IMG/VR virus record: IMGVR_UViG_3300021318_000003
Coordinates: 27,496-91,495 of that record
Length of the DNA stretch: 64,000 bases
Strand: one strand, 5' to 3'
Source: a virus
Lineage: Duplodnaviria; Heunggongvirae; Uroviricota; Caudoviricetes
This document shows, piece by piece, positions 7,477 through 51,547 of this stretch. Below the pieces are notes generated by a model. It was not told where the DNA came from. It did no database searches and saw only the letters and a list, made by a program, of their open reading frames with translations. Within the stretch, counting starts at the first letter, position 1; each line of letters opens with the position of its first letter. Position numbers and translations under genes: made by a program.

Positions 7477-7487
7477 AATGCCCTCCT

Positions 7488-7832: not shown

Positions 7833-7847
7833 CGGCGATACACCTCC

Positions 7848-8051: not shown

Positions 8052-8066
8052 TGATTTGCGTACTCC

Positions 8067-9648: not shown

Positions 9649-9716
9649 CTAAAGTATATCACGGATTTCCCCGATGTCAAGAGGAAACCCGTGAATTTTT
9701 GGCTTGCTTTAGAATT

Positions 9717-11082: not shown

Positions 11083-11414
11083 CCGTCGCTCACCGCCTTT
11101 TTTATGTCCGCGAGGCGCTGGTTGATGCGATCGCAGGTCTCGCAGTAGCCGAGAAGCGCGCGGCGCAGCTCTTCCTTTTCCGCATCATCCATCTTTTTGA
11201 TGGTTTTACCGATCTCGACAAGAATGGCGTCGGCGTCCATTGTGCCGACATCATCGGTGTTCGGGAAATAGTCGGAAGCTGGCTTGTTCATCCAGTCGTG
11301 GAAAGCCTTTTCAGCCGTTTCCTCCATCGGGACGCTCATCAAGCCCATGAGCGTCGCTTCAAAGAGGTCTTGCGGAAGTGTCTGGAGATATTCAAAGACC
11401 GTCATGCCAGTCAC
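11079..11414 (-). CDS. hypothetical protein
   Basis: 111-aa acidic ORF. Confidence 0.45.
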
Positions 11415-11947
11415 CTCGTTCCGGTGGAGCCGAAGCCGCCGCGATCGTCGTTGCCGAGCGTTTTAACCTCCTCAAAGGCGAGCTTCGGCTGGTGCTCCAC
11501 GATGCGGAACTGGCAGATGCGGTCGCCCGTATGGATCTCCGTATCGCGGTCTGCGACGGCGGGGAAGCGCCACTGATCGTTGTCGCCGCAGTATTTCTCG
11601 TCGATAACGCCGATGCTGTTCGCTTGCTTGATACCGAAATGCTTGTAGGTGGAAGAACGCGGCGCAACGATGGCCTCGTATCCTTCGGGAAGCTGCATGG
11701 CAACTCCCAGGGGAATCAGCTTGAACTCGCCGGCCTTCATGGTCACGTCTTCCGCTGCAGCGAGGTCGATCCAGTCGGACTTTCCGCCGACGTAACAGAG
11801 CTTGGGAATTTTATCGGAGAGGTAGCGGATACGGATCGAAACATCCGGCGCGTCGTCGGGAAAGTTTTTGATGCTGTGGCTCTCGTGGTCGACGTCGCCG
11901 GCGTCGTTGTGGTGCTTGATGATCGTCTCAATCGTAGAAAATCCCAT
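11411..11947 (-). CDS. dut: dUTP diphosphatase
   Basis: dUTPase motifs [21 protein letters not shown] and C-terminal RGGFGSTG; start at MGFSTIE behind a GGAAAGGAAA RBS. Confidence 0.75.
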
Positions 11948-12043
11948 TTTCGTTTTTCCTTTCCGTAAACATAAATGGTTTGAAAAATTTTCATCCAAAA
12001 TGCGCCATCGGCGCGGCGGCGGATTTCCGCCGCCGCTTTGCCG

Positions 12044-12520
12044 TTACAGAGCAAGTGCAAACTGGTTGTCGGATATGAGCGTAACGCCGAGAAGGTCGTC
12101 ATACCGCGTGGGACGGTTCGGAATGTAGCGCCCAAACTTCACGATGACGTTCTGACCGCGCAGCGCGACGAGCTTGTCTTCGATCTCTTCGGGATAGTAG
12201 CCCGTATAAATGACGAACGGGCTTTTCGTGTCGCGTGCGCGAAGCGCGGAGAGAAGATGCCGCAGTTCGTCGAATTGAAGCATCGGCTCTAAGCCGCCGA
12301 CGACGATCGCCTTTGTGATCGGATTGGAGAGGTACATCTTCACAAGCGTTTCATCCGAAATGTCGCGGATCGGCGATTGCGCGAGCGGACTGTTCTGGCA
12401 CAGGTCGGCGCTGTGTCCCGCTTCCGTGCAGCACTTCCAGTCGCAAACGGCGCTCGCGATGAACATGGATGGGAGCTTGAAGTTGCAGAAATCCTCTGCG
12501 ACAAGACCGCGCAGCTTCAT
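12044..12520 (-). CDS. nrdG: anaerobic ribonucleotide reductase activating protein-like (radical SAM)
   Basis: start MKLRGLV overlaps the NrdD stop (ATG/TAA); cysteine cluster AVCDWKCC; sits immediately downstream of nrdD; the upstream R-rich part of the track ORF is just overlap with nrdD. Confidence 0.55.
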   Translation of the reverse strand: MKLRGLVAEDFCNFKLPSMFIASAVCDWKCCTEAGHSADLCQNSPLAQSPIRDISDETLVKMYLSNPITKAIVVGGLEPMLQFDELRHLLSALRARDTKSPFVIYTGYYPEEIEDKLVALRGQNVIVKFGRYIPNRPTRYDDLLGVTLISDNQFALAL

Positions 12521-14532
12521 TACATCAGACCGTCCTTCTGGAGCACGTTGAACCAGCGGCGCTTGTCGAACTCGCGCTTGCGGATTTTCTGGTAGCTGCT
12601 GACCGGAACGTAGAAGCCGACGACGCGGGCGTAGGTGTCGGCAACGGGCTTGCCGCAGTGCGGGCAGGTCGCCGTGCCGATAAAGGCGTGCTTGTCCTCG
12701 CAGACGGAGATCTTCGTCGTGAAAGCGAAGTAGATGACGCCCATCGCCGCGACGTAGTTGAGCATATCCCACGCGACGTCCGTGTTGGGGAAGCGGTTCT
12801 CGATGTTGATGTGGGCGATGCAGCCGCCGCCGCACTTGGCGTCGAACAGATTTCCGAGGCGGCACTTCTCCGCAATGGTGCATTTTTCCATGAGCGGTAT
12901 CCACTGGTTTGAGTAGATGAAGTAGCGATCCTGCTCGTACAGCAGGTTATCCGCCTGACAGATGACGCCGGCGCAGTTCTCGGCGGGGATCATCTCGATG
13001 TTGAAGGAGAAGTCGCACTCGAAGCTGTCCTTGACCTTGTTCATCGTGTCGAGGATCTTCGTGGCGAATTTGACCGCCTCGTCGGAATAGCTCTTGTTGC
13101 CGGCTTCGTCCGTGTCGATCAGACCGAACAGATCCATGACCTCGTACATACCGATGCCGCCGATGGTGCAGAACTGCTTGTCAAGTTCGACCGCGCCGTC
13201 CTGATAGTTCGGCAGCAAGCCCTTTTCGATGTTGCGCTTGATGATGTGGCGCATGGAGTAGAGCGCCTTGCAGTCGAGAAGGACGCGCTTTTTGAGGATC
13301 TTGATGTACTCGTCCTGGTCGAAGCTGCTCTCATACGCGATGCGGACGAGGTTGATGGTGCTCACGCGGCAGGAACCGACCGAGAGCGCCGTTCCGCCGA
13401 TGGAGTTGATAAAAGCGTCGAGCTTTTTGGTATCGCTGAGGAGGCGGCAGCAGTTGGAGAGCACGCCTACGTTATCGCTGCAGAAGAAGTTGCTGTCAGA
13501 CCAGTCGATATTATGGTCGGAGCACCAGCGGGCGAAGGTCGCGTCAACGAAAACGTCCCACTCGCGCGTCTGAATCATCTCGCTTACCTTTTCGGGCGTC
13601 AGCGGCTTCTTGAGGAGCGAATACGAAAGCACGGGGTAGGTGAACATGTTGACGGCACGGATCTCGCTGACCACATCCATAAACACCTTCTGGCACTCCA
13701 CCAGATCGTCGATATGGTCGATGGCGAACGTGCCGTCCGGGAACTGGACGCCGCCGAAGAGGGATTCCATGTACGGGTGGTCGAAGATCGAAATGTTGGT
13801 AAAGCTGCTTTGATCCACGCGGAGAAACGGCTGGTTGAGGCGGTAGATGAGCTTCTGGAACTGCTGACGCAGGTAATAGTCGGGATCTTTCATGTAGTAT
13901 CCGTCCTCGACGTCGCGTTTCCAGAAGTACCACGCCCAGATCAGGATGTTCGGCATACCGACCGCGCCGCTCTGCCGGTTGGAAAGGAAGGACACGAACT
14001 CGACCACATCGTCAAAGTAGGTCGTCAGATGCTTCGGCGCTTGGTTGTTGTATCGCTTCTGGACGAAGCGGATATTGCCGTCCGCGTCCTCGAAGTTTCC
14101 GTTGAGAAAGAACAGCCCTTCCGTGGCGAGCCGCGTAAAATCGTTCGCCCAGCAGTAGGGGAAGTAGCTTGCCGTCGCGGAGTCGTTGAGATAGAAACCC
14201 TTGGAAAATTCCTGCTCCAACCACTCTTTCGCCGTACGAAGCCCCCACTTCTTCTTGATCTCGTAGAAAATTTTGTTGAGACCGAAGAGCTTATCTTCGC
14301 TCTTGCCCTTCTCGGTCATAAAGCTGCGGATGTCCTTATGGTTGGCGTTGGCGTTCGGATCAATGCTCGCGTCGGCAAGCGTATCCTTGTCAACAAAGTT
14401 TTCGATAAACTCGGAGAAGTCGAGCTGACTGGGATGGATGCCGTTGATGTACTCGAAGTCTTCTCCGTACTTCTTTTTGAGGTCTTCAAGGCAACGCTCG
14501 AAGTCCTTGGAAAGTTTCAGCTCAATGTTCAT
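12520..14532 (-). CDS. nrdD: anaerobic ribonucleoside-triphosphate reductase (class III)
   Basis: 670 aa; C-terminal Zn ribbon CPHCGKP and glycyl-radical region ARVVGFYVP; overall NrdD-like. Confidence 0.9.
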   Translation of the reverse strand: MNIELKLSKDFERCLEDLKKKYGEDFEYINGIHPSQLDFSEFIENFVDKDTLADASIDPNANANHKDIRSFMTEKGKSEDKLFGLNKIFYEIKKKWGLRTAKEWLEQEFSKGFYLNDSATASYFPYCWANDFTRLATEGLFFLNGNFEDADGNIRFVQKRYNNQAPKHLTTYFDDVVEFVSFLSNRQSGAVGMPNILIWAWYFWKRDVEDGYYMKDPDYYLRQQFQKLIYRLNQPFLRVDQSSFTNISIFDHPYMESLFGGVQFPDGTFAIDHIDDLVECQKVFMDVVSEIRAVNMFTYPVLSYSLLKKPLTPEKVSEMIQTREWDVFVDATFARWCSDHNIDWSDSNFFCSDNVGVLSNCCRLLSDTKKLDAFINSIGGTALSVGSCRVSTINLVRIAYESSFDQDEYIKILKKRVLLDCKALYSMRHIIKRNIEKGLLPNYQDGAVELDKQFCTIGGIGMYEVMDLFGLIDTDEAGNKSYSDEAVKFATKILDTMNKVKDSFECDFSFNIEMIPAENCAGVICQADNLLYEQDRYFIYSNQWIPLMEKCTIAEKCRLGNLFDAKCGGGCIAHINIENRFPNTDVAWDMLNYVAAMGVIYFAFTTKISVCEDKHAFIGTATCPHCGKPVADTYARVVGFYVPVSSYQKIRKREFDKRRWFNVLQKDGLM

Positions 14533-14550
14533 GGATTCCTTGCCCTCCTG

Positions 14551-14799
14551 TCAGATATTGCACGAGTCGCAGCGCGGCGCAGTAGTCGGTTCGGAAGAAG
14601 TTCCGCCGCCATTGATCCAGTCGTTCGCCGCAGAGAAGTTGAGCAGCTCCCCGTCAACCTCAAGCATTGGTGCGGACGTCATGCCGCGCGCGATCATCTC
14701 GTCAACGTTCGTGCAGACCTCATGCTGGATGCCGGCTTCGTTCATCTTCGCTTCGAGCACCTTGCATTTCGGGCAATTCGTCGAATACAGCTTTACCAT
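14551..14799 (-). CDS. NrdH/glutaredoxin-like redoxin
   Basis: 82 aa; MVKLYSTNCPKCKVL gives a CPKC active site. Confidence 0.65.
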   Translation of the reverse strand: MVKLYSTNCPKCKVLEAKMNEAGIQHEVCTNVDEMIARGMTSAPMLEVDGELLNFSAANDWINGGGTSSEPTTAPRCDSCNI

Positions 14800-15087
14800 T
14801 TATCTGTCCTCCTCGTTTTCTGTTCCAGAATCCGGCATGGCGCGGGCGATCACGCAGCCGCCTCTGCCGGTATTCCTCGAATTGTTGACATTCCAAGCAG
14901 CGCCGCTATCTTTGAGAAGCGCTTGCAGCGCCGTTTTGAACGTGTCGGCCGTGTTCGCGTCTGACTGGCTGAGTATCGCATAGATCTCACAGGCTACGGC
15001 GGCAAGCTCCGCCGCGATGTGAAGCGGATCTCCTGCGGCTTCCAACTGCGGGATATAGCCATTGTCGTTGATTGCCACCCGTATCAT
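14800..15087 (-). CDS. hypothetical protein
   Basis: start at MIRVAIND; ATGA overlap with the upstream gene. Confidence 0.35.
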   Translation of the reverse strand: MIRVAINDNGYIPQLEAAGDPLHIAAELAAVACEIYAILSQSDANTADTFKTALQALLKDSGAAWNVNNSRNTGRGGCVIARAMPDSGTENEEDR

Positions 15088-15653
15088 TCGCACGCCTCCG
15101 CAATCTCGGAAATGTTCCGATACAGCTCCGACCACGTTTTGACGCGCTTCATACCGTGCGCTTTGGCATCGTAAAACTGGTTGTGCGGCCGATGAAAGAG
15201 GAACAGATGCTTGACGCTGTTGGCTGCGGCTTCAAGGTTGTGCGTCCCGTCGTCGATCATCACATCGCCGCGCACGATGCTTTTGTCGCTCGCGATGATG
15301 ATGTCCTCCCATCTGAACACCGGAAACAGCTCCAAAAACCGTTTGATTTTCGCCGGAACCGTCGTCGGATGCGTCGCCGTAACGACACGGACTTTATGAC
15401 CGTCCAGCATGAGACGCTGAATGTACGTTGCCGAGTTTGCAATCGGAAGAATCCGCTGCCAGATACCATCGTCGTGCAGAGGAGCAAAGAGCTGATCGGA
15501 CGTAAGATCGGGGAAGAATCTGGCAATTTCCCAATCGGTGACGTCATGCGGCATGACGTTTGTTCCATAGCGACGGTTCAGCTCCGCGATCCACAGGCCG
15601 CAAAAGTCCCACAGAACATCATCGAGGTCGGTCAAGATCGTGAGCTTTTTCAT
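15084..15653 (-). CDS. 5'(3')-deoxyribonucleotidase (HAD superfamily, NT5C-like)
   Basis: N-terminal DLDDVL HAD motif I; common phage NT5C architecture. Confidence 0.6.
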   Translation of the reverse strand: MKKLTILTDLDDVLWDFCGLWIAELNRRYGTNVMPHDVTDWEIARFFPDLTSDQLFAPLHDDGIWQRILPIANSATYIQRLMLDGHKVRVVTATHPTTVPAKIKRFLELFPVFRWEDIIIASDKSIVRGDVMIDDGTHNLEAAANSVKHLFLFHRPHNQFYDAKAHGMKRVKTWSELYRNISEIAEACE

Positions 15654-16183
15654 ACGATGCCCTCCGCGTAAACCGCGTACTCGATGGCGTGCTTGAGCTG
15701 TTCGAGCGTGCCGCCGTTCGTGATGACCGCATCGTACGGGTAGCCATCGAGCGCCGTCTCGGACGGATGCGCTTTCTGAGCTTCCGTCAAGCCGTTATCA
15801 AAGCCGGGACGCTCCACGCGAATGAGCGTGGCATCGAAGCCGCAGTGCAGGAAAATTTCGTACTCGTTCGGAAAACGGCAGTCGGGGATCAGAACGTAGT
15901 CCCACTCGCCGTTGAAGAACGTGAGCATGGAGACGACGAAATCCACCCAGTAGTCCGGCGACTGCGCGCGCACCTTGTCCGTCCCGACATACTGAAGGAG
16001 CGTTCTGCCGCGCTCATCCTTTTTGCCATCCCAGCCGAAATACTTCTCGGCGACGAACTTCACCGCGTCGCCAAAGTGCGCGATGAGCACGCGCTTGCCC
16101 TGCGCTTCCAGGATCTCCTTCAGAAAGCCCGCCGTCGTGTCCTTGCCGTGCTGCGCCTTGGCGGAAATGCAAACGATTTTCAT
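15650..16183 (-). CDS. P-loop deoxynucleoside monophosphate kinase-like protein
   Basis: Walker A CISAKAQHGKDTTA near the N-terminus, about 177 aa. Confidence 0.55.
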   Translation of the reverse strand: MKIVCISAKAQHGKDTTAGFLKEILEAQGKRVLIAHFGDAVKFVAEKYFGWDGKKDERGRTLLQYVGTDKVRAQSPDYWVDFVVSMLTFFNGEWDYVLIPDCRFPNEYEIFLHCGFDATLIRVERPGFDNGLTEAQKAHPSETALDGYPYDAVITNGGTLEQLKHAIEYAVYAEGIV

Positions 16184-16830
16184 ACCTTGTCCTCCCCCGT
16201 GATGAGATAGGTCGCCATCGGCAGCGTTTCAATCCACGGACAAACGCCCTCGCGCCAGTCGGGAAGCCGATGATCCTTGCGCTGCGCGTACATATTCTTG
16301 CAGCAGCGATAGTTTGTCGTCATGCCGGCCGTCAGCTCGAAGCCGGACGGGATGTTGTAGAGCAGGTCGAGATACGCCTGTCGCTTCTGTTCGGGATACT
16401 TCTCTCCGTCGATCGCGTTGTAGGCAGTCTGCAAATCCTCAACGAGGTCGGAGATCGCGGGAAGAACGTGCGCGTTACACTGATCCTTGATGGGGAGCAC
16501 GGACGCGCGGTGCATCGTGCTCATGGACGAGATGAAGTTGAGGAACTTGTAGCGCTCCGCCTCCACCCACGCCTTGTTGGTAAGCGTGAGGTCGAAGTTG
16601 ACGACGATGCCGGTGAGGAACTGGTCGTGACCGCCACCTTTCGCCTGCGCGAGCTTGACGGCACGCTTGATGTGCGGATTGTTGAAATCGCCGGTCATGA
16701 TCGCGGTCTCGATCTCTTCGACCGCCGCCTTGAACTCATCGCGCGTCGGCGCGTGATCCATCATCGGGTATCCGCTGCGGAAGATACTGCTTGCGAGACC
16801 GAAAACCTCAACATTGTCAATTCTTGCCAT
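16180..16830 (-). CDS. hypothetical protein (possibly a divergent ThyX-like enzyme)
   Basis: sits inside the nucleotide-metabolism block; GGHDQF...ERYKFLNFISSMSTMHR is only loosely ThyX-like. Confidence 0.4.
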   Translation of the reverse strand: MARIDNVEVFGLASSIFRSGYPMMDHAPTRDEFKAAVEEIETAIMTGDFNNPHIKRAVKLAQAKGGGHDQFLTGIVVNFDLTLTNKAWVEAERYKFLNFISSMSTMHRASVLPIKDQCNAHVLPAISDLVEDLQTAYNAIDGEKYPEQKRQAYLDLLYNIPSGFELTAGMTTNYRCCKNMYAQRKDHRLPDWREGVCPWIETLPMATYLITGEDKV

Positions 16831-16837
16831 ATAGAAA

Positions 16838-16865
16838 CCTCCTACAAATTATTGTCGTACTAATG
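16838..16865 (-). promoter_or_regulatory. motif-A element
   Basis: cctcctacaaattattgtcgtactaatg upstream of 16180..16830. Confidence 0.4.
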
Positions 16866-17516
16866 AGAAGAATAAAAATTATGACCGCCGATGGTACAGA
16901 CATAGCGCAGACTGTTGTGGAACGCAGAATTAGTATATGTCGAACAGAAAAACTCGATCGTGTCGTCCACCACGTTTTGCCCTTGTCCGAAAACGAGCAG
17001 GCACGCTTCGTTGACGGTCTCCATATTGTCCGTGCAGCTCTTGGATACGGGCGAAGCGTATTGTCCAGGAACCTTGACGACCTGCTCCGGCGTCTGACCG
17101 GTGCGTTCCGCCGTTGTTCGGATGCACTGCGCAACCGCCATAATGCCCTCGAACGGCTCGCCGCGCGCCTCCGCGCCGACGACGCGGACAACGTAATCGA
17201 AATCGTAGCCCCACTCGTCGATAGCGGGATAGACCTCTTCGGCGAACGCTTCCTCCGCGACGGTTTCGATGTCGGCCTCGGATTGCAGCTCGTAGAGCTG
17301 GAGCGTAAGGTCGGCGTTGAGCGCGTGCAGCTCGTCACACGTTTTTTTCATCTCTTCGGCGTTGGCGTTGAGCTGCTGCATCGCCTCTTCCAGCTCATCC
17401 ACCTCGCGGCGCAGGCGAGAATTGACGCCGGCGAAAACGATGGCGAATACGAGCGACACGATGATGATGAACCAAAGTAAGCAGTCGGTTATGTTTGTGA
17501 TGTGCTTGGTTTTCAT
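16860..17516 (-). CDS. membrane-anchored SleB/CwlJ-type cell-wall hydrolase
   Basis: N-terminal TM helix then coiled coil; C-terminal VVGAEARGEPFEGIMAVAQCIRTTAERTGQTPEQVV..PGQYASPV resembles Hydrolase_2. Confidence 0.6.
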   Translation of the reverse strand: MKTKHITNITDCLLWFIIIVSLVFAIVFAGVNSRLRREVDELEEAMQQLNANAEEMKKTCDELHALNADLTLQLYELQSEADIETVAEEAFAEEVYPAIDEWGYDFDYVVRVVGAEARGEPFEGIMAVAQCIRTTAERTGQTPEQVVKVPGQYASPVSKSCTDNMETVNEACLLVFGQGQNVVDDTIEFFCSTYTNSAFHNSLRYVCTIGGHNFYSSH

Positions 17517-17525
17517 AGTTCCTCC

Positions 17526-20500
17526 TTAAATGACGACGTTGTAGCCGTTGAGATACCAGAAGCCGGCCTGGTTCTTTGAAATGGACTTTGCAAAAATAAC
17601 GTCGAATTTCCGAATCGGCTGTTTTTTGTAGTTGGACGCACGCAGCGTCAGGCGCGCGGTCTTACCGCTGCCAATGGAGCGCGTTTGAAGCGCATAGCCC
17701 CAGACAGCTCCGTCCTTCTTGCTCTTGAGCGGGTAGACGTCCATGATGATGAGCTTGCGGCGGTCTTTTTCGTCGCCGCTGGTCAAGTCAACGTATCCGA
17801 GGTTTTCCAACTGATCTTGCATTTTGCTTTTGAAGTCAAAATCCTCCAGATGGAAGCCGCGCACGGTTTCTTCCAGCTCGACAAGCAAGCCATCCATGTC
17901 CGTAATAGTGTAGCTTTTCGCGACCGTTCCGTTTTTTGCGGCGTCGGTTGCGTGCCGAGATACGATCTCCTCAAGCTCTTCGTTGAGCTTTTCCTTTGCG
18001 ATTTTCTTTGCCGTTCCGTTTTTGAAGTAGGCAAACAGTTCGACCATGCGAAGAAGCTCACGGGCGTTGCCGTACTCAGAGAAGTAGTCCAGACGGATGA
18101 GAATGTCGCGCTGGCGCGTATCCAACCGCGTTTCCGTGTCGAGAACGCGCAGCAGCTCCATAAACGAGTCAGGCTTCTTGACGTGTGACAACTCATAGAG
18201 CTGATTCGCGACCTCGGCGTTGAGGTATTTGACCGACGCGATGCCTTTTGAGATGAATTGCTCATCCTTATCGAACAGGTAGCGGTCTTTCGACCTGCCG
18301 AAGCGCGGCGGGACGATTTTGATGCCGTACGCGACTGCAAGCTCGTTGCCGCTTTTGACGTCCTCTTCGCCGTTGGCGTTATTGAGGTACGCCGTGATGA
18401 ACTCGTAAGGGTGGTAGTAGCGGAGATAAGCACAGAGATAACCGATCATGCAGTAGCCGATCGAATGATTGTAGCCGAACATGTAGCTCGACGCATCGGA
18501 GATGATCTGCACAAACTCCTTGGCCTCCTGTTCCGCGACCTCGCGCGGCTGCGGCGACATTTTACAGTAACCGTCTAAAATATCAGGAAGCGCCTTTGCC
18601 AACTCCTCCGGTTTCTTCCTCGCTATCATGCGCCGCGTATTGTCCGCCGCGCTGCCGGAATAACCACAGATTTGCTGTAGGAATTTGATGACGTCCTCCT
18701 GATAGACAAGATAGCCATAGTTGTCGGCAAGTAGCTCGTCGATGATCGCTGACGGATTCTTGTGCGGCTTGTGCTTCATCAGGTCGTCGCGGTACGACGC
18801 GCCGGACGGACGCAGCGCCGCCGTGATGAGGCTCATATCGAAGATCGAGTGCGGCTCGTACTGCTTGAGCATGGAGAACGCGAAGTCTCCCTCAAACTGG
18901 AAGATCCCAACGGGGGAGCGGAGCATATCCTTCCAGACAGCCTCATCGTTCCAGTTGATTTCATGCGATTTCGGGTACGGCGTCCCGATGAGCTTGTAGG
19001 CGTCCTTGATAATCTCGACGTTTTTGAGTCCGAGGATGTCGTATTTGACAAGCCCCGCGTCGTGGACGCAATCCATGTCGATTTGCAGGATCTCCTTGCC
19101 GTCCGAGAGGAACGTACCGTAGTTGTCTCGCAGCGTGATTGGGCTTGCGACGATGCCGGCTGGGTGCATAGATTGTGAGATCGCGACGTCCAACAGCCCG
19201 TCGTAGTAGTAGAAGACTTCAGGATACTTTTCGCGCGTTTTCTCTTCGCTGACCTCGAACTCATCCTTGATCTGCGTGGAGATCTTACCGATCCACGGGT
19301 TTTTCGCGTAGATTGCATCATTCTCTTTTTTGAGGTGTTCGTATTCCTTTTGCAGCGACTTGGCTTCATCGCTGTTTGCAGTTTTCAAATCTGCAATTTG
19401 CTGCTTTAGCTTACGAAGATCATGCAGGTGCTCCTTATCCCACCGAACGCCGAGGCCGCGACAAATCTCGTCGATCGCGCCCTTGGACTTGATCGTGCCG
19501 ATGGCGAGGATGTACGCCGTCTTCTCCTGACCGAAGCGGTTGATGATGTACTCATACACCTTGTCGCGGTCGGACGGAGAGACGTCGATGTCGATGTCGC
19601 CGATCTCCTTGCGGTCTTCGTTCGCGAAGCGGCTAAAGACCGTTTTCCACGTTTCGGGATTAAGGTCGGTCGTATCGGTCAGGAACGCCACGCGGGAACC
19701 GCCGCACGAACCACGATTGAAGCCGAGCGGAATGTCGTGCGTCTTGCACCACGTCGCAAGCTCGCTCATAAAGAGCATGAAACCGGACATCTCGATCTTG
19801 TCGAAGACGTGCATTTCGTCCTGAATCGCCGCGCAGAAAGGCGCTTCCTGCTCATGCGTTACAGCGCCGGAGGCGAGCTTCGCCTGCAAGCCTTGCTCGA
19901 TGCGCTCCATCAAGACGCCGCGATCGCGTTCGCCGTACAAAATCGGGTACTTGAAGCTCTTGTCGAGGTCGAACGCATCCACGGAGTCCGCGATGACGTT
20001 TGTGTTCTCAATCGCATCAGCCCAGAGCTTTTCCGGTATGGCATCCTGCGCGCGGAACATCTCGCACAGCTCGTCGTAGCTCTTGTAGGTAAGGTCAAAC
20101 GTGTCCTCATCCGCAAACTCGATGTGCTTGGCGAGCTGCATCATCGTGCGGCACTCCGCCTTGTACTTGTCAAGGCTGTGTGTATCGGTGGTTGCCACCA
20201 GCGGGATGCCGTATTTCTGCGACATCTCCGCAAGGTGGCGGTTGAACGCGATTTGGTCGGGATGGTTGTGCGGTTGGATTTCGAGATAGTCGTAGTGTTT
20301 TACCAACCGCTCATAAAGCGGGTGCGTGATGGGAAGCCTGTTGAGAGGCGAAGCAAGGCACGCGCTCATTTTGATTACGTTGTTGGATATACCGAGAAAT
20401 TCGTCAAACGTGATGCGCGGCTTGTAGTAGAAGTGATCTTCCGTGCTCGACCGACTGACAAGCTCGTTGATCTCACGCAGACCGTCCATGTTCTTCGCAA

Positions 20501-30291: not shown

Positions 30292-31110
30292 TTACTCCTT
30301 TTCGTTTTGAATTTCACTGAGAAAGTTCTTTTTGAACAGGTCGACAAGAGTTGCGTTGAGGATTTCATCAACGCCACGGTCGATTTTCGGCGTGTGGAAA
30401 TCCATATACGAGTCCTTAACGAGCGTCATCCTGCCGACCGCATCATTGGCAAGCACAACGGCCGTGCTCTCGTCCTTCGCTCCGTTCACCTTGACGTCGA
30501 GCAGCCAGTCGGCACGTTTGGAGATCAGGCAGTCCTCGTATGGAACGCCGTCCATCCAGCGATCCATAAATTCCTCCAGACGGAGGATATGATGGAGCTG
30601 CTTGGGATCGTAGCCGAATTTCTTGATCTTATCCATCGTCGCCGGATACGGATGACAGAGAGCTTTCTGCTTTTCGAGCGCCATGCCGACCATGCAGTTG
30701 AGCGCGGCGAAGTCGTTGTAATGGCCGATGCGCTCGCGCGCATCCAGAACCGGCTTGAAAAGCGCCTCGTACTTCGGATTTAGGATGCGGTACTTCGTGA
30801 ACAGGATCTCGACGAAGTTGATATTCTGCTTGCGGAAGCAGTCATACATAAGGCGAATGTCCTTGACGTCAACGTGCTCGTCGTTCTCCATGATGTGCGT
30901 ATAGCTGTGCGGCTTGCGGTTGAGAACGAAGTCCTCGAATGTCGGAAGGACGATGAGTTTGGAGTCGACATCGCTTCCCTCATAGTCCAGCTTGTAATTC
31001 TGCGAGCCTTGCAGGAAAATGCCGACGTATTCGGGATGCTTGTCTTTTACGGCATCGAGGTGTTCGCGCAGCCGCGCCATGATTACGGCATCATGCTCAA
31101 GCTCCGTCAC
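30292..31110 (-). CDS. Pol-beta superfamily nucleotidyltransferase
   Basis: GSQNYKLDYEGSDVDS fits the GS-x10-DxD NTase signature. Confidence 0.55.
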   Translation of the reverse strand: MTELEHDAVIMARLREHLDAVKDKHPEYVGIFLQGSQNYKLDYEGSDVDSKLIVLPTFEDFVLNRKPHSYTHIMENDEHVDVKDIRLMYDCFRKQNINFVEILFTKYRILNPKYEALFKPVLDARERIGHYNDFAALNCMVGMALEKQKALCHPYPATMDKIKKFGYDPKQLHHILRLEEFMDRWMDGVPYEDCLISKRADWLLDVKVNGAKDESTAVVLANDAVGRMTLVKDSYMDFHTPKIDRGVDEILNATLVDLFKKNFLSEIQNEKE

Positions 31111-32546
31111 GATTCCTCACCGCTTTCCGTGACAAGCTCCTGCGCCTCCTCCATGTCCGGCGCGGCGGCGACGTCCTTCGCCAACCCCTCCAGAACCTTA
31201 AAGGAGAAATTCTTGATTTTGTACGCCGCGAACTTCGGGCGATCCACGATGCGGACGACAACGCCCTCGCGAACGTGTGTCTTGCCGACCGGATCAGCGC
31301 CGTCGTAGAATCGCTCTGCAATCTCTTTGATGTATTCACCGGCGCTGCACTCTTCTTCGCGGAAGGTAAGACCATCTTCGTTGGACGAATAACGCTTCGG
31401 CGTTTCCGGAATATATCCCTTCCAAAGAACCGGTACGCACTTGACGCCCATCTGCTTGCAGCGGTAGCGGACGAAATCGGGCGGATACTCCACCACGTCG
31501 CCGTCCTCGTTGGTCATGGTCATGCGGTAGACGTAGAGGTCAGACTGCGGAACGTGGCGCGTCATCACGCCGCCGCCCTCGGCGGGAACCAGCTCGTCGC
31601 GCCCCTTAACGTCGCAGCCGTAAGAGAAGGTCGTCGTTTTTCCGTACTGTCTGGAAAACTCCTTGTCGCCGTTGGCCTGATCGACTTTCTTGTTGTCAAC
31701 GCTCGCCATGATGGGCTTGCCGTCCGTCGTGAAGCCGACGACCTCATAGTAGACCGTCTCGCCCTTGTGCAGCTTGCCCTCGAAAGCCTTGCTGTGCTCC
31801 TCGCGGAAGGTGTTGTTGCCGTACCAGCCGCCCTCGTAGTTTTCCAGAACCGTGCGGCGCGTGCCGGAGACGTAACCCCAGTCGTAGACGGGCGTTCCGT
31901 CGCGGCGCAGGAGCTTGTCGAGAAGCGTGCGCCTGTAGCCTTTGAACGTCGGAAGGTAGCCGGTGCGCTGAGACGTACCGTGCATCTTGAGCGTGATCTC
32001 CACCAGATCGCCCGGATAGAACGCGGAGAGGTTGTAGGCAAGCTGCTCCGTATCGGCGTGCTCGGCGAAGAGCGGCGCGATCGGCGCGCGCTTCTTTCTG
32101 GTGCGGTTGCCTCCGCCGCCAGCGCTTCCGCCGCGACGGTTGACGGCTGGGATGTACTTCTCGCAGATGGTGACGCCGCCGAGCATTGTGATCTGGTCGC
32201 CCTCCTTGAGCTTGGATACGTCCGTGAACTTCGCGAGACTCCGCAGCGGCATGAACAGCCCATCGCTCTTCTCGCCACGCAGCTTGAGCGCCTTGATGTT
32301 GCGCCTGTCGGGATCGAGATAGCCGCCGGCGGGCTTTCCGTTCTCGTCCTTGCGGCGCAGCAGGTCGTTTTCGGTCGCGTATTCCAGGCCGAGCTTTCCG
32401 TCAACGGGGAAGTACACGCCCAGCTCATCCGGCTGCGTCTTCAGATCGACGATGACGGTGTTGCCGAAGCACTCACCACACTGGAGCCGATCCGCGTTGC
32501 TGTGCTTGCGCAGGTTTTCGATTCTCGTGATGTAACCGCAGTACAT
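31107..32546 (-). CDS. ATP-dependent RNA ligase, Rnl2-like
   Basis: ITLKMHGTS resembles the Rnl2 motif I KxHGxN (lysine nucleophile); 479 aa with extra N- and C-terminal domains. Confidence 0.5.
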   Translation of the reverse strand: MYCGYITRIENLRKHSNADRLQCGECFGNTVIVDLKTQPDELGVYFPVDGKLGLEYATENDLLRRKDENGKPAGGYLDPDRRNIKALKLRGEKSDGLFMPLRSLAKFTDVSKLKEGDQITMLGGVTICEKYIPAVNRRGGSAGGGGNRTRKKRAPIAPLFAEHADTEQLAYNLSAFYPGDLVEITLKMHGTSQRTGYLPTFKGYRRTLLDKLLRRDGTPVYDWGYVSGTRRTVLENYEGGWYGNNTFREEHSKAFEGKLHKGETVYYEVVGFTTDGKPIMASVDNKKVDQANGDKEFSRQYGKTTTFSYGCDVKGRDELVPAEGGGVMTRHVPQSDLYVYRMTMTNEDGDVVEYPPDFVRYRCKQMGVKCVPVLWKGYIPETPKRYSSNEDGLTFREEECSAGEYIKEIAERFYDGADPVGKTHVREGVVVRIVDRPKFAAYKIKNFSFKVLEGLAKDVAAAPDMEEAQELVTESGEES

Positions 32547-34148: not shown

Positions 34149-34290
34149 GGATAACTACTCCTTGTTTTGTTTTGCGGACTCACCGGAATTGCACCGGAGC
34201 ACCTGCGTTCTGCACCCACAGGCGTGACGCTTATCCGCGATGTCGTCATATATACCTTAGAAAGGGAGGAACCGCACTATGTCGGCTCGT

Positions 34291-34360
34291 GCTGAGAAGC
34301 GGGACTCGAACCCGCAGACCGCGAATATGGCTCGCTGCCCGTCCTTCGGGCTGTTCCCAG
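34291..34360 (-). tRNA. possible degenerate tRNA-like element (candidate anticodon CAU)
   Basis: clear T-arm GCGGG-TTCGAGT-CCCGC; acceptor CTGGGAA/TTCTCAG with one G-U; D-arm GCCC/GGGC; anticodon stem has an A-G mismatch and C33; no encoded CCA. Confidence 0.3.
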
Positions 34361-34439
34361 CATACTGCCGCACTTACGCGGCTGTAGCGGTCTTTCCCGC
34401 CGTCAAAAGGAGAACCAGTTGCCGTCCACCACAAACGGC

Positions 34440-34528
34440 TGGCGGAAGGGGAGGGGATCGAACCCTCGCGCCGCTTTCGCGACCTAATGACGTAGCAGGT
34501 CATCCTCTTACCACTTGAGTACCCTTCC
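34440..34528 (-). tRNA. tRNA-Ser (anticodon GCU)
   Basis: acceptor GGAAGGG/CCCTTCC plus encoded GCCA; anticodon stem-loop ATGAC-CTGCTAC-GTCAT; long variable arm (type II); T-arm GAGGG-TTCGATC-CCCTC. Confidence 0.75.
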
Positions 34529-34529
34529 A

Positions 34530-34929
34530 TTATAACTGGACGATGTATTTTGAATAATCCGGCACGTTTTTTCCGGCAAATTTGCTCTTGCGCTTCCCAA
34601 GATCCAGAACTGATTTATTCTTGATCTCATCAGTTGGAATCAGATACATTGTTCCATCTCCGCACAAGCAGAAAAGCAGATCGACATTTGTATCTTTAAC
34701 CGTTCTCATCGCTTTTCTTGTTGTGCCGCTGATTGTTCGTAACGAAAGAGCATATACGTCGTTGTAAATAACATTGTTTGTTGCTTTTACTTGGACTCGT
34801 GATAAAACATCATCTTTATCAACAATTAAATCGTACGGTTGTGTATCGTTTAACGGGACAGATACCGTATAGCCATTCGATCCAAAATATGCTATTGCAA
34901 CCGACAAACCAGCATTTCCAATATCGCGT
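34530..34929 (-). CDS. PD-(D/E)XK-type nuclease-like protein
   Basis: PYDLIVDKDDVLSRVQVK fits D-x(n)-D/E-x-K; probable TTG start behind AAGGAG; lies between the RT and tRNA-Ser. Confidence 0.45.
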
Positions 34930-34957
34930 TTTGTATCAAGTTTCAAAAAAACACTCC

Positions 34958-35650
34958 TTAAAACAATGACTCTACATACCGATCCATGTCCGTCACGAGC
35001 TTGTGGCAGTTGCCGTGCAATGCGTGGTTTTTCCACGAGGCGTACTTCTCGTCGAATTTCTCGCGCGTCATTCGACCGTCGCGCACGAGCTTCGCATATT
35101 TGCGAAGACGCCGCTTGATCTGGCGCTTGTTGTCGCCGGTGAGCTTGCGGATGACCTTGCCGTCCTCCGTGAGATAGCTGTGAAAGCCGAGAAAGCGGAC
35201 GCCCTGCCGTATTGGTACGATCTCTGTCTTGCCGTTGAGCGTCAGGCGAAGCTCGGCAAGATACGCCCTAATCTCAGCGAGACATTTTTCCAGGTATTCC
35301 TTGTCTTCCGCGATCAAATAGAAATCGTCCATATATCTCCCGTAATATCGGCAGCCAAGCTCCTCCGTGATGAAATAGAAGCTCAGCAGGCTTTCCGAAA
35401 GACGATCCAATCCGAACAAGGTTCCCTTGCCTGTTTGACCGGCGTAGTTGTCGAGGAGAAAACACTCACGCAGCTTCGGCAGCAACACGCAGTCGCACAG
35501 GCAATGCTGGAGAACCTTGTCGCGGAACGTACCTGACCGGACGATCCTTCGTTTCGGCTCGGAGACGATAAACTCGGTGTACGCGCCAACGCGGTAGGTG
35601 CGCTCCTCCAACTGGCGCTTCATAACGCACAGATTTTCGAGAGCCAGCAC
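34958..35650 (-). CDS. DGR-type reverse transcriptase with internal deletion of motifs 3-4
   Basis: EPKRRIVRSGTFRDKVLQHCL (motifs 1-2), NYAGQTGKGT, RYMDDFY (motif 5), GVRFLGF (motif 7); only about 20 aa between motif 2 and YMDD, where canonical DGR RTs have about 90. Confidence 0.75.
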   Translation of the reverse strand: MLALENLCVMKRQLEERTYRVGAYTEFIVSEPKRRIVRSGTFRDKVLQHCLCDCVLLPKLRECFLLDNYAGQTGKGTLFGLDRLSESLLSFYFITEELGCRYYGRYMDDFYLIAEDKEYLEKCLAEIRAYLAELRLTLNGKTEIVPIRQGVRFLGFHSYLTEDGKVIRKLTGDNKRQIKRRLRKYAKLVRDGRMTREKFDEKYASWKNHALHGNCHKLVTDMDRYVESLF

Positions 35651-35862
35651 ATTGAACCGCTGCGCGCTGCGTTTCTTCCCCTTGCCTTTGCAAGCGACCT
35701 GATACGACCGGAACAGATTTCCAAAATCGACCAGCCTTTCAAAATCGCTTGCGTCATTTGTGTTTGTCCCGCCAGAGGCGAGAGAGGTCGTATGCTCTTT
35801 TGACAGTATGGCGCACTCCTTTTAGCCGCTGAAGCAGCTTATAGACCTCGCTGATCCACCAG

Positions 35863-35942
35863 AACGGGCGAACGTCGTTGCTGTAGTCACAGTCGTTCCA
35901 GTTCAGGATACCATTGGAGTTGACGTAGCAGACGTTGCGAGC
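35863..35942 (-). repeat. DGR template repeat (TR)
   Basis: about 80 nt; matches VR1 and VR2 except at TR adenines on the coding strand; the 3' boundary sequence differs from the VRs (no IMH). Confidence 0.8.
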
Positions 35943-35972
35943 ATCAGCATACAGCCTAAAGGATTCGTCCGG

Positions 35973-36338
35973 TCAGGTCTTCCGCCAAGCGAGCGTCATG
36001 TATTTGACGTCGTGGGCTAAGGAAGTCCACGTTTCGCCCGTCGCAGCGCTGATGAGATGAGCGTGGAGGCTGTATTTCACAAGGCTTAGAAATTTATTGC
36101 AATGGGTGATCGCGCTCGTTTGGTAGTCGAAGCGCTTTTGCCGCTGAGACGGCGAATCGTTGCGGAAGGAATTTGCATCCATCACATCGCTGTGAATGTT
36201 CAGCGCGTACTTCTGGAGCGTATCGGCCAGACGACGAAACTTGACAGGATAGTGTTGCCGGCTCGTCGTCAGGTCGAAGACGCTGAAATACAGAGCTTCC
36301 GCTTTGTCGCCGATGTCAAATTTGACCTCTTCGCTCAT
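35973..36338 (-). CDS. Avd-like accessory variability determinant candidate
   Basis: 121-aa basic ORF sitting exactly between VR1 and TR, as in canonical DGR cassettes; no motif support. Confidence 0.4.
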   Translation of the reverse strand: MSEEVKFDIGDKAEALYFSVFDLTTSRQHYPVKFRRLADTLQKYALNIHSDVMDANSFRNDSPSQRQKRFDYQTSAITHCNKFLSLVKYSLHAHLISAATGETWTSLAHDVKYMTLAWRKT

Positions 36339-36347
36339 CGCCGAGTA

Positions 36348-36959
36348 TCAAGATACGAAGATCGAAGAGTCCAAAACGCAAAACGGGCGAACGCCGTAGC
36401 TGTAGCCACAGCCGTTCCAGCCCAGGATACCACCGGAGTTGACGCAGCAGACGCCGCGAGCGTATCCGGTGCTCTCATCGTGCGTCACTCTGGTAGCCGT
36501 CCACCAGGGCGAACCCATCGCCGGAAGATACTCGCGATAGCGGCGGTAGAGATCGGTCGTGAGAAGGGAAACATGGTCGCGGACGGAGAGCTTTTTGCCC
36601 GTTCCGTCGTCGGCGACGAGCTTGACGGTGTGCTCCACGATGTTGCTTGCGCCGACTGCCTTGGAAAGCTCCTTATAGAAGGTATCGTTGAGATAGCGGC
36701 GCACGTCGCTCTTTGCGTAGTCGCCGCCGCCGGCGTAGTCCATCGTTTTGATGGAATCCTTGGCGAGTACGGCCGTCGTGGTCGCGCTGTGCTCCAGGAC
36801 ATAGAACTCGCGGTCGCCGAGCTTCACGATCTCACCGCACTTGACCTCGCCGAGCGTGCGGCGCGGCTGCTCGGACAGGGTAACGGTGATGTCGCCGTTG
36901 TCGTGCTCCTTGACGTCGACCTTGACGTTGGGAAACTCATTTTTGATCTTGATCTGCAT
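36348..36959 (-). CDS. DGR target protein 1 (C-type-lectin-like variable C-terminus)
   Basis: C-terminus WWTATRVTHDESTGYARGVCCVNSGGILGWNGCGYSYGVRPFCVLDSS; VR1 covers the last about 27 codons. Confidence 0.8.
   Translation of the reverse strand: MQIKIKNEFPNVKVDVKEHDNGDITVTLSEQPRRTLGEVKCGEIVKLGDREFYVLEHSATTTAVLAKDSIKTMDYAGGGDYAKSDVRRYLNDTFYKELSKAVGASNIVEHTVKLVADDGTGKKLSVRDHVSLLTTDLYRRYREYLPAMGSPWWTATRVTHDESTGYARGVCCVNSGGILGWNGCGYSYGVRPFCVLDSSIFVS
36383..36461 (-). repeat. DGR variable repeat VR1
   Basis: TR AAC, AAT, GAC and TAC codons become GGC, GGT, GGC, TGC and TAC here; 11 of 19 TR adenines substituted and no other changes. Confidence 0.8.
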
Positions 36960-47091: not shown

Positions 47092-49044
47092 TTATGCGGT
47101 GAGAAGAGGCATGGACGACGCGGGGGATATGATGTAGTTCTGCGGCGCGCGCATGACCTCCTCATACGCTTCGCGACCCTGGAACTCATCAATGACGGCG
47201 CGGGATTCCGCGTCCATGTCGTCATAGCCCTTCTTTCCATAGTCGGGCGGGAGCCACTGGCGGCCGCGCGCGGCGAAGATGTTGAGACGGTCGATCAGGC
47301 GCTTGGCGGACGGATCGAACTTGATGTGACACGTCCCTTTCTTGTAGAACGTCGCGGAGAAATACTTGAAATCCATCGACGTCCGGCAACAATCCTCCGC
47401 CGCCTGCGCGACGCGGTACGGATCGACCGACGAAGAGGTCTCGCCACGGTCAAGGTAGTTGAGAGAACGCTCGATGTCGGCAATCGTCTGCGCGAACTCA
47501 CGCGCCTCCAGCTTCTTCTTACCGTCGTACTTCGTGTAGAAAGCGTTGATCGGGAGAATGACCTTCATGCCAACCTTGTGCGCCTTGTTCGTCGCCCAGC
47601 CGTTATAGTAGTGGACGTTGTTCACGCACTCCGGATACCATGCGTGCTCAGCGGAAAGCTCGTCGAAGAGCTTGTAGATCGAATCCTCCACGCCGCGCGA
47701 GAGCTGCGCGGAAATCTCCATGATGACTCTCTTGATGTTGTAGCAACTGAAATCGTAATCCTGCATCTCGCGAATTTTGTCGTGATACTCGCTCTGGAGC
47801 TGCGACGTCATCTTTTCCGTAAGCTCCCTGCGAGAAAGCAGCGTCTCCCAGTATTTGTAACGGAGCTTGCGGAGATAGGCATTGATCGTGTCGCTCGTTG
47901 CGTGGTCACAGTCGCGGTCGTTCACGGAAATCTTGATAAGCGGCTTGTCGTATTCGCCCGTTCCGCTCATAATGTACGGCGCGAGCGCGTTGTATTCGCG
48001 CATGAGCGCGACGCCCAGCTTGGCCTCTATCTCGTAACCTGAAACCATCTGGTCGATCCAGTCGCCGGCAACCAGGTCTTCGACCTCGTTGTTGTGCTCC
48101 CCATCCTCCGCGCGTTCCGCTTTCTTGAGTTGTTCCAGAATGTGAGACTCGTGCCTCGGCTCCGGGATGTTCAGATAGACGATCGCAACCTCGACGTCAC
48201 TGCGGCGTTCCGCGCGGGAGAACGCGCCGGAAACAAACTCGATCTTTGCGTCGTATTTCTGGAGCTGCTGCTGCAACACCTTGCGGCGGTCGGTGTACGG
48301 ATTGCGGATGGTCTCGGCATTGAGCAGACACACGATCTGTCCACCGCTGTCACGCTGCATGGAAATCGCTTTGAGCAAGTGCTCATCGCCATTGGAAAAC
48401 GGCGGGTTCATAATAATCGCGTCGTAGTGCTTCATCGTGAAGTAGGTGAGAAAGTCATCGGATACCACGCGGTAGCCCTTGCCTTTGAGGATGAGCTGCA
48501 AATTCGCGTCGCGCTCAATGCAGTCAAATCGCTCCGTAAACCAATCGTCGCGGTAGTGGTATCCGCCTTTCTTGTAGAAGCACTTGACTGCGCACTCAAT
48601 GAGGTCGCCTTTACCTGCGGACGGCTCCAAAAACGTCTCGACCTTGCGCCAGTCAATCATGTTCGCCATCTTACCGGCGAGCTGCGTCGGCGTCGGAAAG
48701 AACTCGGCGTCCGGCGAAGCGGGCAGCGCGCGTACATCCGAATGAAGTGCCTCGCCGCTATGCTCCTTGTACCAATCCGCAAATATTTTCTTGCCCTCCG
48801 CAATGTTGCGGGCATATCCGATATTGTTAGACCTGCGATAGCGTCCGTCGACCTCCGTATAATAGGCCACCTCAATCGGCGTATCTTTGTGCCAGTGGTC
48901 GACGGCAAAGCGACCGTCCTCGTCGTAGGTCATGCAGGTGAGACATCCAATCGGCTGATCGCCTTTTGAGATAACGACCGTCTTTTCAGTAACGGGCTTT
49001 TCCCATCTGCGCCCACTGGTTATCTCCTCTTTATATAGGAACAT
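47092..49044 (-). CDS. N6-adenine DNA methyltransferase (gamma-class-like) with large extra domains
   Basis: FPTPTQLAGKMANMIDW..LEPSAGKGDL (motif I) and IIMNPPFSNG (motif IV); 650 aa. Confidence 0.75.
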   Translation of the reverse strand: MFLYKEEITSGRRWEKPVTEKTVVISKGDQPIGCLTCMTYDEDGRFAVDHWHKDTPIEVAYYTEVDGRYRRSNNIGYARNIAEGKKIFADWYKEHSGEALHSDVRALPASPDAEFFPTPTQLAGKMANMIDWRKVETFLEPSAGKGDLIECAVKCFYKKGGYHYRDDWFTERFDCIERDANLQLILKGKGYRVVSDDFLTYFTMKHYDAIIMNPPFSNGDEHLLKAISMQRDSGGQIVCLLNAETIRNPYTDRRKVLQQQLQKYDAKIEFVSGAFSRAERRSDVEVAIVYLNIPEPRHESHILEQLKKAERAEDGEHNNEVEDLVAGDWIDQMVSGYEIEAKLGVALMREYNALAPYIMSGTGEYDKPLIKISVNDRDCDHATSDTINAYLRKLRYKYWETLLSRRELTEKMTSQLQSEYHDKIREMQDYDFSCYNIKRVIMEISAQLSRGVEDSIYKLFDELSAEHAWYPECVNNVHYYNGWATNKAHKVGMKVILPINAFYTKYDGKKKLEAREFAQTIADIERSLNYLDRGETSSSVDPYRVAQAAEDCCRTSMDFKYFSATFYKKGTCHIKFDPSAKRLIDRLNIFAARGRQWLPPDYGKKGYDDMDAESRAVIDEFQGREAYEEVMRAPQNYIISPASSMPLLTA

Positions 49045-49123: not shown

Positions 49124-49157
49124 ATAAAAAAAAGACGCCGGAGCAATCCGGCGTCTT
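49124..49157 (-). terminator. rho-independent terminator
   Basis: GACGCCGGA-GCAA-TCCGGCGTC stem-loop followed by a T-run on the minus strand; downstream of 49170..49352. Confidence 0.6.
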
Positions 49158-49370: not shown

Positions 49371-50003
49371 TTACTCCGCGAGAACCAAGATCGAAGAGTC
49401 AAGAGTCAAAAACGGGCGAACGCCGTAGCCGCAGCCACAGTCGTACCAGCGCAGGACACCACTGGAGCCGACGCAGCAGACGAGGCGAGAATAACCGTTG
49501 CTCGGCGTGGAAGCTGGCGTGATCGTCCACCACCAGTTTTCGTACTCGGGCTGCAAGCCGAGAATTTTGTGGTACTTCGCGTACTCGGCGGCGGTCAGCA
49601 GGCTGATGTAATCCTTGCACTCGCCGTAATCATCGAGGCCATCGAGCGAGGTCAGGTCGCGCTCCATCGCAAGGATGTGCTCGCCGCCGATGATCGCCGC
49701 GATTTTTTTGAGGTATTCGCCGTGCAGCTTCTCGCGGATGGGCGATTCCATCCAATGCGAGCTGTCGCCGAACTCCTCGTCGTTGTAGGCGAAGCCCTCG
49801 GAGATGACGCGCGTGCCGTCGCTCGTGTGCTCCAGAACGATGAACGTCTCATCGCCGATTGGGAAGGTATCGCCAGGAGAGAGGGAAGAGAGCAGAACCT
49901 TGCCAGCATTGCGCAGCGGCTCCAGTGCGGCGGCGTCCGGAACCTCGATGATGACCTTGTTGCCGTCGACGGTGATCTTGCTCTTGTCAAATTCCAACTT
50001 CAT
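49371..50003 (-). CDS. DGR target protein 2 (paralogue of target 1)
   Basis: C-terminus WWWTITPASTPSNGYSRLVCCVGSSGVLRWYDCGCGYGVRPFLTLDSS; shares the F.VLEH(S/T) core with target 1; VR2 at its 3' end. Confidence 0.8.
   Translation of the reverse strand: MKLEFDKSKITVDGNKVIIEVPDAAALEPLRNAGKVLLSSLSPGDTFPIGDETFIVLEHTSDGTRVISEGFAYNDEEFGDSSHWMESPIREKLHGEYLKKIAAIIGGEHILAMERDLTSLDGLDDYGECKDYISLLTAAEYAKYHKILGLQPEYENWWWTITPASTPSNGYSRLVCCVGSSGVLRWYDCGCGYGVRPFLTLDSSILVLAE
49409..49487 (-). repeat. DGR variable repeat VR2 (remote, about 13 kb from TR)
   Basis: differs from TR only at TR-adenine positions (AAC to CTC, GGC, CGC or TAC; GAC to GGC; and so on); IMH-like GATCGAAGAGTC..AAAACGGGCG shared with VR1. 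Confidence 0.8.
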
Positions 50004-51109: not shown

Positions 51110-51547
51110 TCAGTCATCTTTACACAACTCCTCGACCTCTGCACGCGTCCAGCCGTTTTCTTTGCAAACGCGCCAGTCGGCGGCCGTGAAGTCTTCCGTG
51201 CTGCCAATGCTGCTGTGGTAGTCCAGAATAGCGTTCGGAAGTCCCTCGTTGTACCAGTGCCAATTCAGCTCGCCGTACTTCTTCAGGTGCCACTCTTTCC
51301 CATCCGCGATTTTGCTGCGGAGATTGAAACCGGTATCCATGAACAGATTGCGCACCGTCCAGTCTGAGCCGAGATTGACCACGCAGCGTCGACCGGTATC
51401 TTTTTCGTAGGCTACCTCCGAGAAGATCGGATTGCCGCCTCCGTCCGTCGTGTTGCGGTTCATGTCCGCGACGTTGAAATAATAGGCCTTCCCGTCAAGC
51501 TCAAAGGACACGTTCAAATCGGTGATACATTTCACGTTATTTGCCAT
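51110..51547 (-). CDS. hypothetical protein
   Basis: 145-aa ORF. Confidence 0.45.
   Translation of the reverse strand: MANNVKCITDLNVSFELDGKAYYFNVADMNRNTTDGGGNPIFSEVAYEKDTGRRCVVNLGSDWTVRNLFMDTGFNLRSKIADGKEWHLKKYGELNWHWYNEGLPNAILDYHSSIGSTEDFTAADWRVCKENGWTRAEVEELCKDD

Follow-up and report, generated by a model that had tools for sequence, protein, structure and literature searches.

The 64,000-nt stretch analyzed here (positions 27,496 to 91,495 of the IMG/VR record IMGVR_UViG_3300021318_000003; hereafter the window, meaning the whole stretch) encodes what is very likely a canonical phage diversity-generating retroelement (DGR) with two hypervariable lectin-like target genes, and with similarly high confidence we read this copy as one that has become null for its reverse transcriptase (RT) through a recent deletion. 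Examination of both strands of the region placed the element on the minus strand in the order target gene 1 with its variable repeat (VR1), avd, template repeat (TR), spacer and RT, and a paralogous second target carrying VR2 lies 13.5 kb upstream of the TR. In intact siblings of this phage, the RT and an Avd-like protein would copy TR RNA with errors at adenines and the cDNA would then replace VR1 or VR2, so that, in two small proteins of C-type-lectin fold (DUF6273), 13 codons on the presumed ligand-binding face would be rewritten. In the window, a recent 225-nt in-frame deletion in the RT gene has taken out motif 4 (LGNQCSQ) and motif 3, which contains the catalytic aspartate; the element would be unable to diversify alone, and its VRs would be frozen unless a co-infecting sibling phage supplied an intact RT. 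The initial annotation of this region had called a DGR with a single TR, two VRs (one close by, the other remote), an adenine-specific pattern, an Avd-sized gene and lectin-like target ends, all of which we recovered.

The RT gene lies at 34958..35749 on the minus strand, with a conserved frame from SDFERL (35749) and a GTG at 35650 as the first canonical start. Only positions 147-204 of the 205 in the Pfam RVT_1 profile, its C-terminal quarter, are matched by the window RT, and a homologue search with this protein returned 1780 relatives, the closest of which are 98-100% identical and are aligned by BLAST over 52% of the query in one piece. Alignment to these near-identical homologues showed a gap of exactly 75 residues in the window RT: its sequence passes directly from ...LLSFY to FITEELG..., and both motif 3 (ILKCDVTKFFYSIDH) and motif 4 (GLPLGNQCSQVF) fall in the missing part, while motifs 1, 2, 5 (YMDD) and 7 and the thumb are kept; the absence of motifs 3-4 from an otherwise recognizable RT had been noticed in the initial annotation. 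In the aligned homologues the missing block contains ILKCD(V/I)TKFFYSIDH (motif 3, catalytic Asp) and GLPLGNQCSQVFALMF (motif 4, DGR signature LGxxxSQ), and both KCD.TKFFYSIDH and LPLGNQCSQ are nearly invariant among the listed RT homologues. The aspartate of motif 3 (A) is one of three metal ligands in RTs and, because it is absent, the deleted RT should be catalytically dead.

An intact version of the gene was present on a 66-kb contig from another sample (ERZ27247006 k141_27748; loci L001, L098 and L103), whose 17,623 + 2,701 bases aligned with the window (20.3 kb), VR1 and VR2 included, show 100% identity. The only difference detected by BLAST (L103 versus the window) is 225 extra bases at window position 35374/35375, and these code for KCDVTKFFYSIDH, with the catalytic Asp, and LPLGNQCSQ. 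With KCDVTKFFYSIDH, LPLGNQCSQ and YMDD all present, the intact allele (P0003/L001) has the features of a DGR-clade RT, as does the lineage; the window copy, with motifs 3 and 4 deleted, is not a complete RT. The best match of the intact allele in the PDB is the Bordetella enzyme bRT (8ub7; bRT residues 11-321, E=3e-40), in terms of which the missing block corresponds to 'KSDFSKFFPSID ... GIPIGSLTSQLFAN'. Furthermore, 543 IMG/VR stretches encode RT relatives, and the best 80 of the 543 all match over the full length. Since the homologues are full length and a 100%-identical genome holds the missing 225 nt, the short RT is, by these comparisons, an allele that arose within the strain by recent in-frame deletion, as opposed to a minimal RT type or a trait of the lineage. 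What is odd here is thus a loss-of-function allele; neither the RT nor the element is of a new kind. That the RT is degenerate and may no longer drive homing, one of the possibilities raised initially, agrees with this result. The other, a minimal variant, does not, given that the 100%-identical genome and every related RT that we examined have the block. A functional minimal DGR RT that dispenses with motifs 3 and 4 might be expected to retain YMDD, motifs 1-2, the thumb and the reading frame, and to be the assembled consensus in several samples, as is the case here. Nevertheless, a chance deletion is in frame one-third of the time, the 75 residues are present in near-identical genomes and in all listed homologues, the aspartate that was lost is a metal ligand, and a single VR1 allele occurs across all deleted contigs, so that we consider such an enzyme very improbable.

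The identical deletion junction, located between 35374 and 35375 (GAGCTTCTAT|TTCATCACGG, without microhomology), was recovered from no fewer than six further assemblies of ENA, JGI and Logan origin, although some ENA and JGI assemblies may derive from the same data and the sample is small. These are JGI 3300023710 (L002/L104), ERZ27247004 (L003/L100), ERZ27247020 (L004), JGI 3300036438 (L101), JGI 3300036554 (L102) and JGI 3300023707, where the junction lies behind a 100-N gap in the 130-kb scaffold Ga0257072_1000292 (L099). Metagenome assemblies can collapse repeats, and the N-gap of L099 falls at this very point, as might be expected if the deletion were an artefact of assembly. However, this explanation is highly unlikely, because the same junction appears in many assemblies (six or more samples, represented by ENA contigs of MEGAHIT style, JGI contigs and one JGI+Logan contig) and has no flanking repeat or microhomology; the gap in L099 is also the pattern expected from a genuine two-allele bubble. 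In this scaffold, a 100-N gap and a 77-nt duplicated overlap (5586-5685) sit exactly at the RT deletion breakpoint, which suggests that both RT alleles co-exist in the JGI 3300023707 sample. The split of the L099 RT into genes of 91 and 124 aa is explained by this gap and overlap at the same junction, and a second RT lesion was ruled out. Deletion by slippage between repeats was likewise rejected, as there is no microhomology at the junction and only a poor 9/14 similarity nearby.

To define the repeats, the TR, VR1 and VR2 were placed by means of their common 3' anchor, GTTCGCCCGTT, compared without gaps and evaluated with a hypergeometric test. The TR (35863..35942, minus strand) is a non-coding 80-nt core with 19 adenines, whose in-frame translation would be ARNVCYVNSNGILNWNDCDYSNDVRPF. 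VR1 (36382..36461, minus strand), at the 3' end of target gene 1, differs from the TR at 11 positions, 11/11 of them TR adenines (p=7e-9), and the remote VR2 (49411..49490, minus strand) at 16 positions, of which 15/16 are TR adenines (p=9e-12); the sole non-adenine mismatch between TR and VR2 in the window is the first base, at the 5' border. Thus the earlier statement that all differences fall on TR adenines is accurate for VR1 and fails at one base of VR2, and the AAY-type codon changes described with it are correct. The earlier limits of the TR also stand, whereas VR2 had been misplaced by 2-3 nt and VR1 is now set at 36382-36461. The TR is identical at all related loci that cover it, and three of these (L085, L086 and L088) combine the identical TR with different VR1s, in which 9/10, 13/13 and 15/15 mismatches are at adenines. 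Rare changes at other bases were also observed, namely GGT to GTT in the VR1 of L085, and TAC to GGC, which needs a T to G change, in VR2-b (L090/L104) and in P0127.

The homology between TR and VRs stops directly after GTTCGCCCGTT, and inspection of the region corresponding to the initiation of mutagenic homing (IMH) site showed a GC-rich end shared by TR and VRs, GCGTTCGCCCG, followed by sequence found in the VRs only. The initial annotation had described an IMH-like stretch that the TR lacks; this applies to the downstream TT..GACTCTTCGATC, which alone is confined to the VRs, and not to CGCCCGTT, which the TR and VRs have in common. We considered whether the resemblance between TR and VRs could reflect ordinary paralogy or gene conversion with no retroelement mechanism, given that the two targets are indeed paralogues. 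This can be practically dismissed: the TR is non-coding, seven independent VR alleles have their mismatches at TR adenines and nowhere else, VR2 alone distinguishes genomes that are identical over 20 kb, and cognate RT and Avd genes flank the TR.

The DGR has recently been active in this lineage, since near-identical genomes with the same TR carry different VRs. Clustering of the target proteins at 90% identity gave 10 VR1 and 3 VR2 protein alleles in proteins that are otherwise nearly invariant. The variable positions all map to the 13 A-containing codons of the TR, and all but three of the VR changes can be reached through adenine substitutions alone. The three VR2 alleles (a, b and c) occur in genomes that, when VR2 is set aside, share 99.9-100% identity over 12-20 kb. 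For example, a contig from ERZ27247007 (L092) has 11 differences from the window in 20.6 kb and another from ERZ27247004 (L107) has 13 in 12 kb, and every one of these lies within VR2; these differences are fresh homing events at the remote target.

Three haplotypes could be read from single contigs: deleted RT, VR1-a and VR2-a in the window; intact RT, VR1-a and VR2-a in L103; and deleted RT, VR1-a and VR2-b, together with 4 single nucleotide polymorphisms (SNPs), in L104. VR1-a was found in every deleted-RT contig. The combination of an intact RT with VR2-b was not seen on single contigs, two large VR2-b contigs not showing their RT status. Some points count against the reading of this copy as inactive. 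Genomes with the deletion allele carry two VR2 alleles, a and b, a split that at face value argues for at least one homing or recombination event after or around the deletion, and the VR states of these populations come from assembled contigs and not from reads. In addition, loss of RT activity is inferred from the protein sequence alone, and our search for a second RT, in which tblastn with DGR-RT queries found none, covered 64 kb of the ~130-kb genome and used DGR-type queries only; within that range, the second RT for which a check had been proposed was not found. The presence of VR2-a and VR2-b on the deleted background could be due to RT acting in trans, to recombination or to mis-phasing by the assembler.

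The first of these possibilities is that phages with a deleted RT still diversify because co-infecting siblings provide them in trans with an intact RT (and Avd), making the deletion allele a free-rider. Several features are consistent with it. All of the cis elements (TR, spacer, avd, the two VRs and the hairpin at VR1) are intact and show no difference from their counterparts in RT+ genomes, and one and the same sample series yields intact as well as deleted alleles, the N-gap of L099 being exactly at the junction. ERZ27247004 holds both a deleted-RT contig and a VR2-b contig that, VR2 apart, matches the window at 100% identity. With the three haplotypes (RT+, VR2-a), (deleted, VR2-a) and (deleted, VR2-b), the simplest recombination-free order runs from intact(a,a) through deleted(a,a) to deleted(a,b). 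As (RT+, VR2-b) was not observed, the a-to-b homing would, assuming no recombination, fall on the deleted background, and this order would therefore require RT in trans; the extra SNP of L104 at 36948 is derived (K4N, in P0128 only). Laboratory work on BPP-1 shows that supply in trans is possible, since a BPP-1 phage from which avd, TR and brt have been deleted can be retargeted by plasmid-borne avd-TR-brt (PMC3240598). However, homologous recombination between co-infecting near-identical phages would yield the same haplotypes, and so would an assembler that made separate majority choices at two bubbles lying 14 kb from each other. Moreover, two further large VR2-b contigs could carry either RT allele, and the sample is small, with ENA and JGI data that possibly overlap. 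On balance, diversification in trans strikes us as rather unlikely. We are equally hesitant about the fuller scenario, in which a natural RT-null allele is the assembled majority in several samples, intact siblings persist and the change of VR2 from a to b was made by RT in trans. The reading that we prefer remains a canonical DGR whose RT in this copy has been lost through recent deletion.

The upstream end of the RT gene offers no canonical start for the conserved N-terminus (SDFERLVDF..., homologous to bRT residues 11-50), as there is no in-frame ATG, GTG or TTG (35747-35821, minus strand). The start codon site reads ATG or GTG in L005/L007, GCA in the window and GCG in L085/L086. An ATG at 35757 is out of frame with the RT, and the only in-frame start candidates are ATA and CTG, 6-9 nt past an AAGGAG (about 35812-35797). 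Despite this, the RT appears to be made somehow, because genomes with the same start arrangement show different VR1s. At the other end, a ~420-nt insert of low GC content (38-40%; 34533-34946, minus strand) directly follows the RT stop codon and encodes a PD-(D/E)XK endonuclease (Pfam PDDEXK_5, E=1e-17) that has a TTG start and an AAGGAG overlapping the RT stop; gene callers annotated only a 39-aa remnant here. It looks like a free-standing homing-endonuclease-type insertion and is absent in L085/L086, whose RT ends in SLFSGAA and not in SLF. Genes for tRNA-Met (CAT) and tRNA-Ser (GCT) lie directly downstream of the RT and endonuclease (34289-34361 and 34440-34528, minus strand), and in the anticodon-stem region of the tRNA-Ser the window differs from the L085/L086 copies.

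The remaining components of the element conform to this picture of a DGR. Target gene 1 (36348..36959, minus strand) encodes 203 aa with a DUF6273/C-type-lectin-fold C-terminal domain, and its paralogue, target gene 2 (49371..50003, minus strand), encodes 210 aa with 32% identity to target 1; both VRs are at the 3' end of the target open reading frames (ORFs), in the C-type-lectin-fold (DUF6273) variable domain, as in DGRs generally. Between VR1 and the TR, an ORF of 121 aa (35973..36338, minus strand) has no sequence-level match in Pfam, NCBIfam or PDB, and its identification thus required a fold search. An AF2 model built from a 32-sequence alignment (pLDDT, the predicted local distance difference test, 92) has four helices in a bundle, and the best PDB matches of this model in Foldseek (template modeling scores of 0.73-0.85) were 2rld and 2gsc, of the 23S-rRNA-IVP/Avd-like family, and 4dwl, the Avd from the DGR of Bordetella phage BPP-1. 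By its predicted fold only, the product is therefore an Avd-like accessory protein. The coordinates given earlier for these three genes, and for an RT ORF of 34958-35650, were all correct.

Downstream of VR1, an imperfect inverted repeat (36321..36375, minus strand) with 20-nt arms, 80% complementarity and a 15-nt loop starts 7 nt 3' of VR1 and overlaps the avd start. Its DNA fold of -17.9 kcal/mol (z=-2.3) makes it a candidate hairpin/cruciform target-recognition element, and the same repeat and fold analysis found no equivalent inverted repeat downstream of VR2. The spacer of ~110 nt between TR and RT (35750..35862, minus strand) is strongly conserved among relatives at the nucleotide level even though their RTs are only 70-82% identical; it contains two small hairpins with some compensatory changes and is probably, on this rather slight evidence, the 3' part of the DGR RNA. 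A scan for promoters gave no sigma-70-like match upstream of either target, which does not bear out the earlier proposal that target 2 is driven by a promoter of its own. A strong terminator-like hairpin (49132-49157, minus strand; 11 pairs followed by a T-run) is located after a 60-aa ORF downstream of target 2.

The architecture of this element closely parallels that of the BPP-1 DGR (mtd-avd-TR-brt), with which it shares the order of target/VR, avd, TR and RT, adenine-specific mutagenesis, a C-type-lectin-fold target that has its VR at the 3' end and an inverted repeat after VR1, in addition to an intact-allele RT that aligns to bRT (8ub7) and an accessory protein that matches the Avd fold (4dwl). 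Unlike BPP-1, there are two targets here, of which one is 13.5 kb away and has no detectable hairpin; both are small DUF6273 proteins encoded amid replication genes and small early-type genes, with no evident tail fibre; the BPP-1-type (GC)14 + 21-bp IMH is lacking; and the RT of this copy is without motifs 3-4. Gut-phage DGRs with DUF6273 targets have been described in the Faecalibacterium prophages Lelie, CP11, Roos and Pioen and in the nd4/nd12 'tentaclin' phages, two targets per DGR being among the arrangements reported for them (PMC11792537, PMC10743442), and two target genes are reportedly present in ~13% of prokaryotic DGR cassettes (PMC10743442). As in these gut-phage DGRs, the targets of the present element have DUF6273/C-type-lectin domains that carry the VR at their C-terminal end; it differs in that both targets are of a small single-domain type and in that it belongs to another, far larger genome of ~130 kb, which encodes a DNA polymerase, a primase-helicase and NrdD of its own. 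A third point of comparison is engineered RT-null BPP-1 (the brt SMAA mutant and delta-ATR), in which homing is restored by avd-TR-brt in trans (PMC3240598). As in those phages, the VR targets here are intact and no functional RT is predicted in cis; however, the engineered alleles are a point mutation or a full deletion, whereas the one described here is a natural null allele, made by an internal in-frame deletion, that co-circulates with the intact allele.

Since the architecture, the DUF6273/lectin targets and the pairing of targets have all been described, the element as such does not extend what is known of DGR biology. It is of interest for a natural experiment in which phages that are otherwise base-identical over 20 kb differ, within one sample series, by an RT-killing deletion and by their VR alleles. 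Combined with reads, such material would address whether DGR activity is dispensable or costly to the phage over short time scales, whether VRs freeze after RT loss and whether RT acts in trans between co-infecting genomes. If diversification in trans were true, it would constitute a free-rider/public-good dynamic for a hypermutation machine.

The phage that carries this element is large, with a genome of about 130 kb and related contigs of up to 126-130 kb. The window codes for a DNA polymerase (1087 aa), a primase-helicase, NrdD, an RNA ligase, a DNA methyltransferase and a KTI12/AAA_33-HD protein, and the neighbourhood of the DGR consists of replication and nucleotide-metabolism genes (5870-23216, 31107-32546 and 47092-49044), with no evident tail module adjoining. 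A megablast of the window against the INPHARED phage collection gave no match, nor did an exact 21-mer scan of IMG/VR. A metagenome scan returned one true locus and two chance matches, and an Rfam scan of the region yielded nothing but a tRNA. Elsewhere in the window, a poly-G run at 28543-28550 (minus strand) has G8 where L001, L002 and L003 have G9; it lies 24 nt into a 145-aa gene and puts the window copy out of frame, reflecting either a homopolymer sequencing error or phase variation. Finally, L105 (JGI 3300023705) lacks ~360 nt of the window (about 51183-51542; the BLAST pieces overlap by 11 nt), an indel that takes out a 145-aa gene upstream of a DUF932 gene and represents further indel polymorphism within the same phage population.

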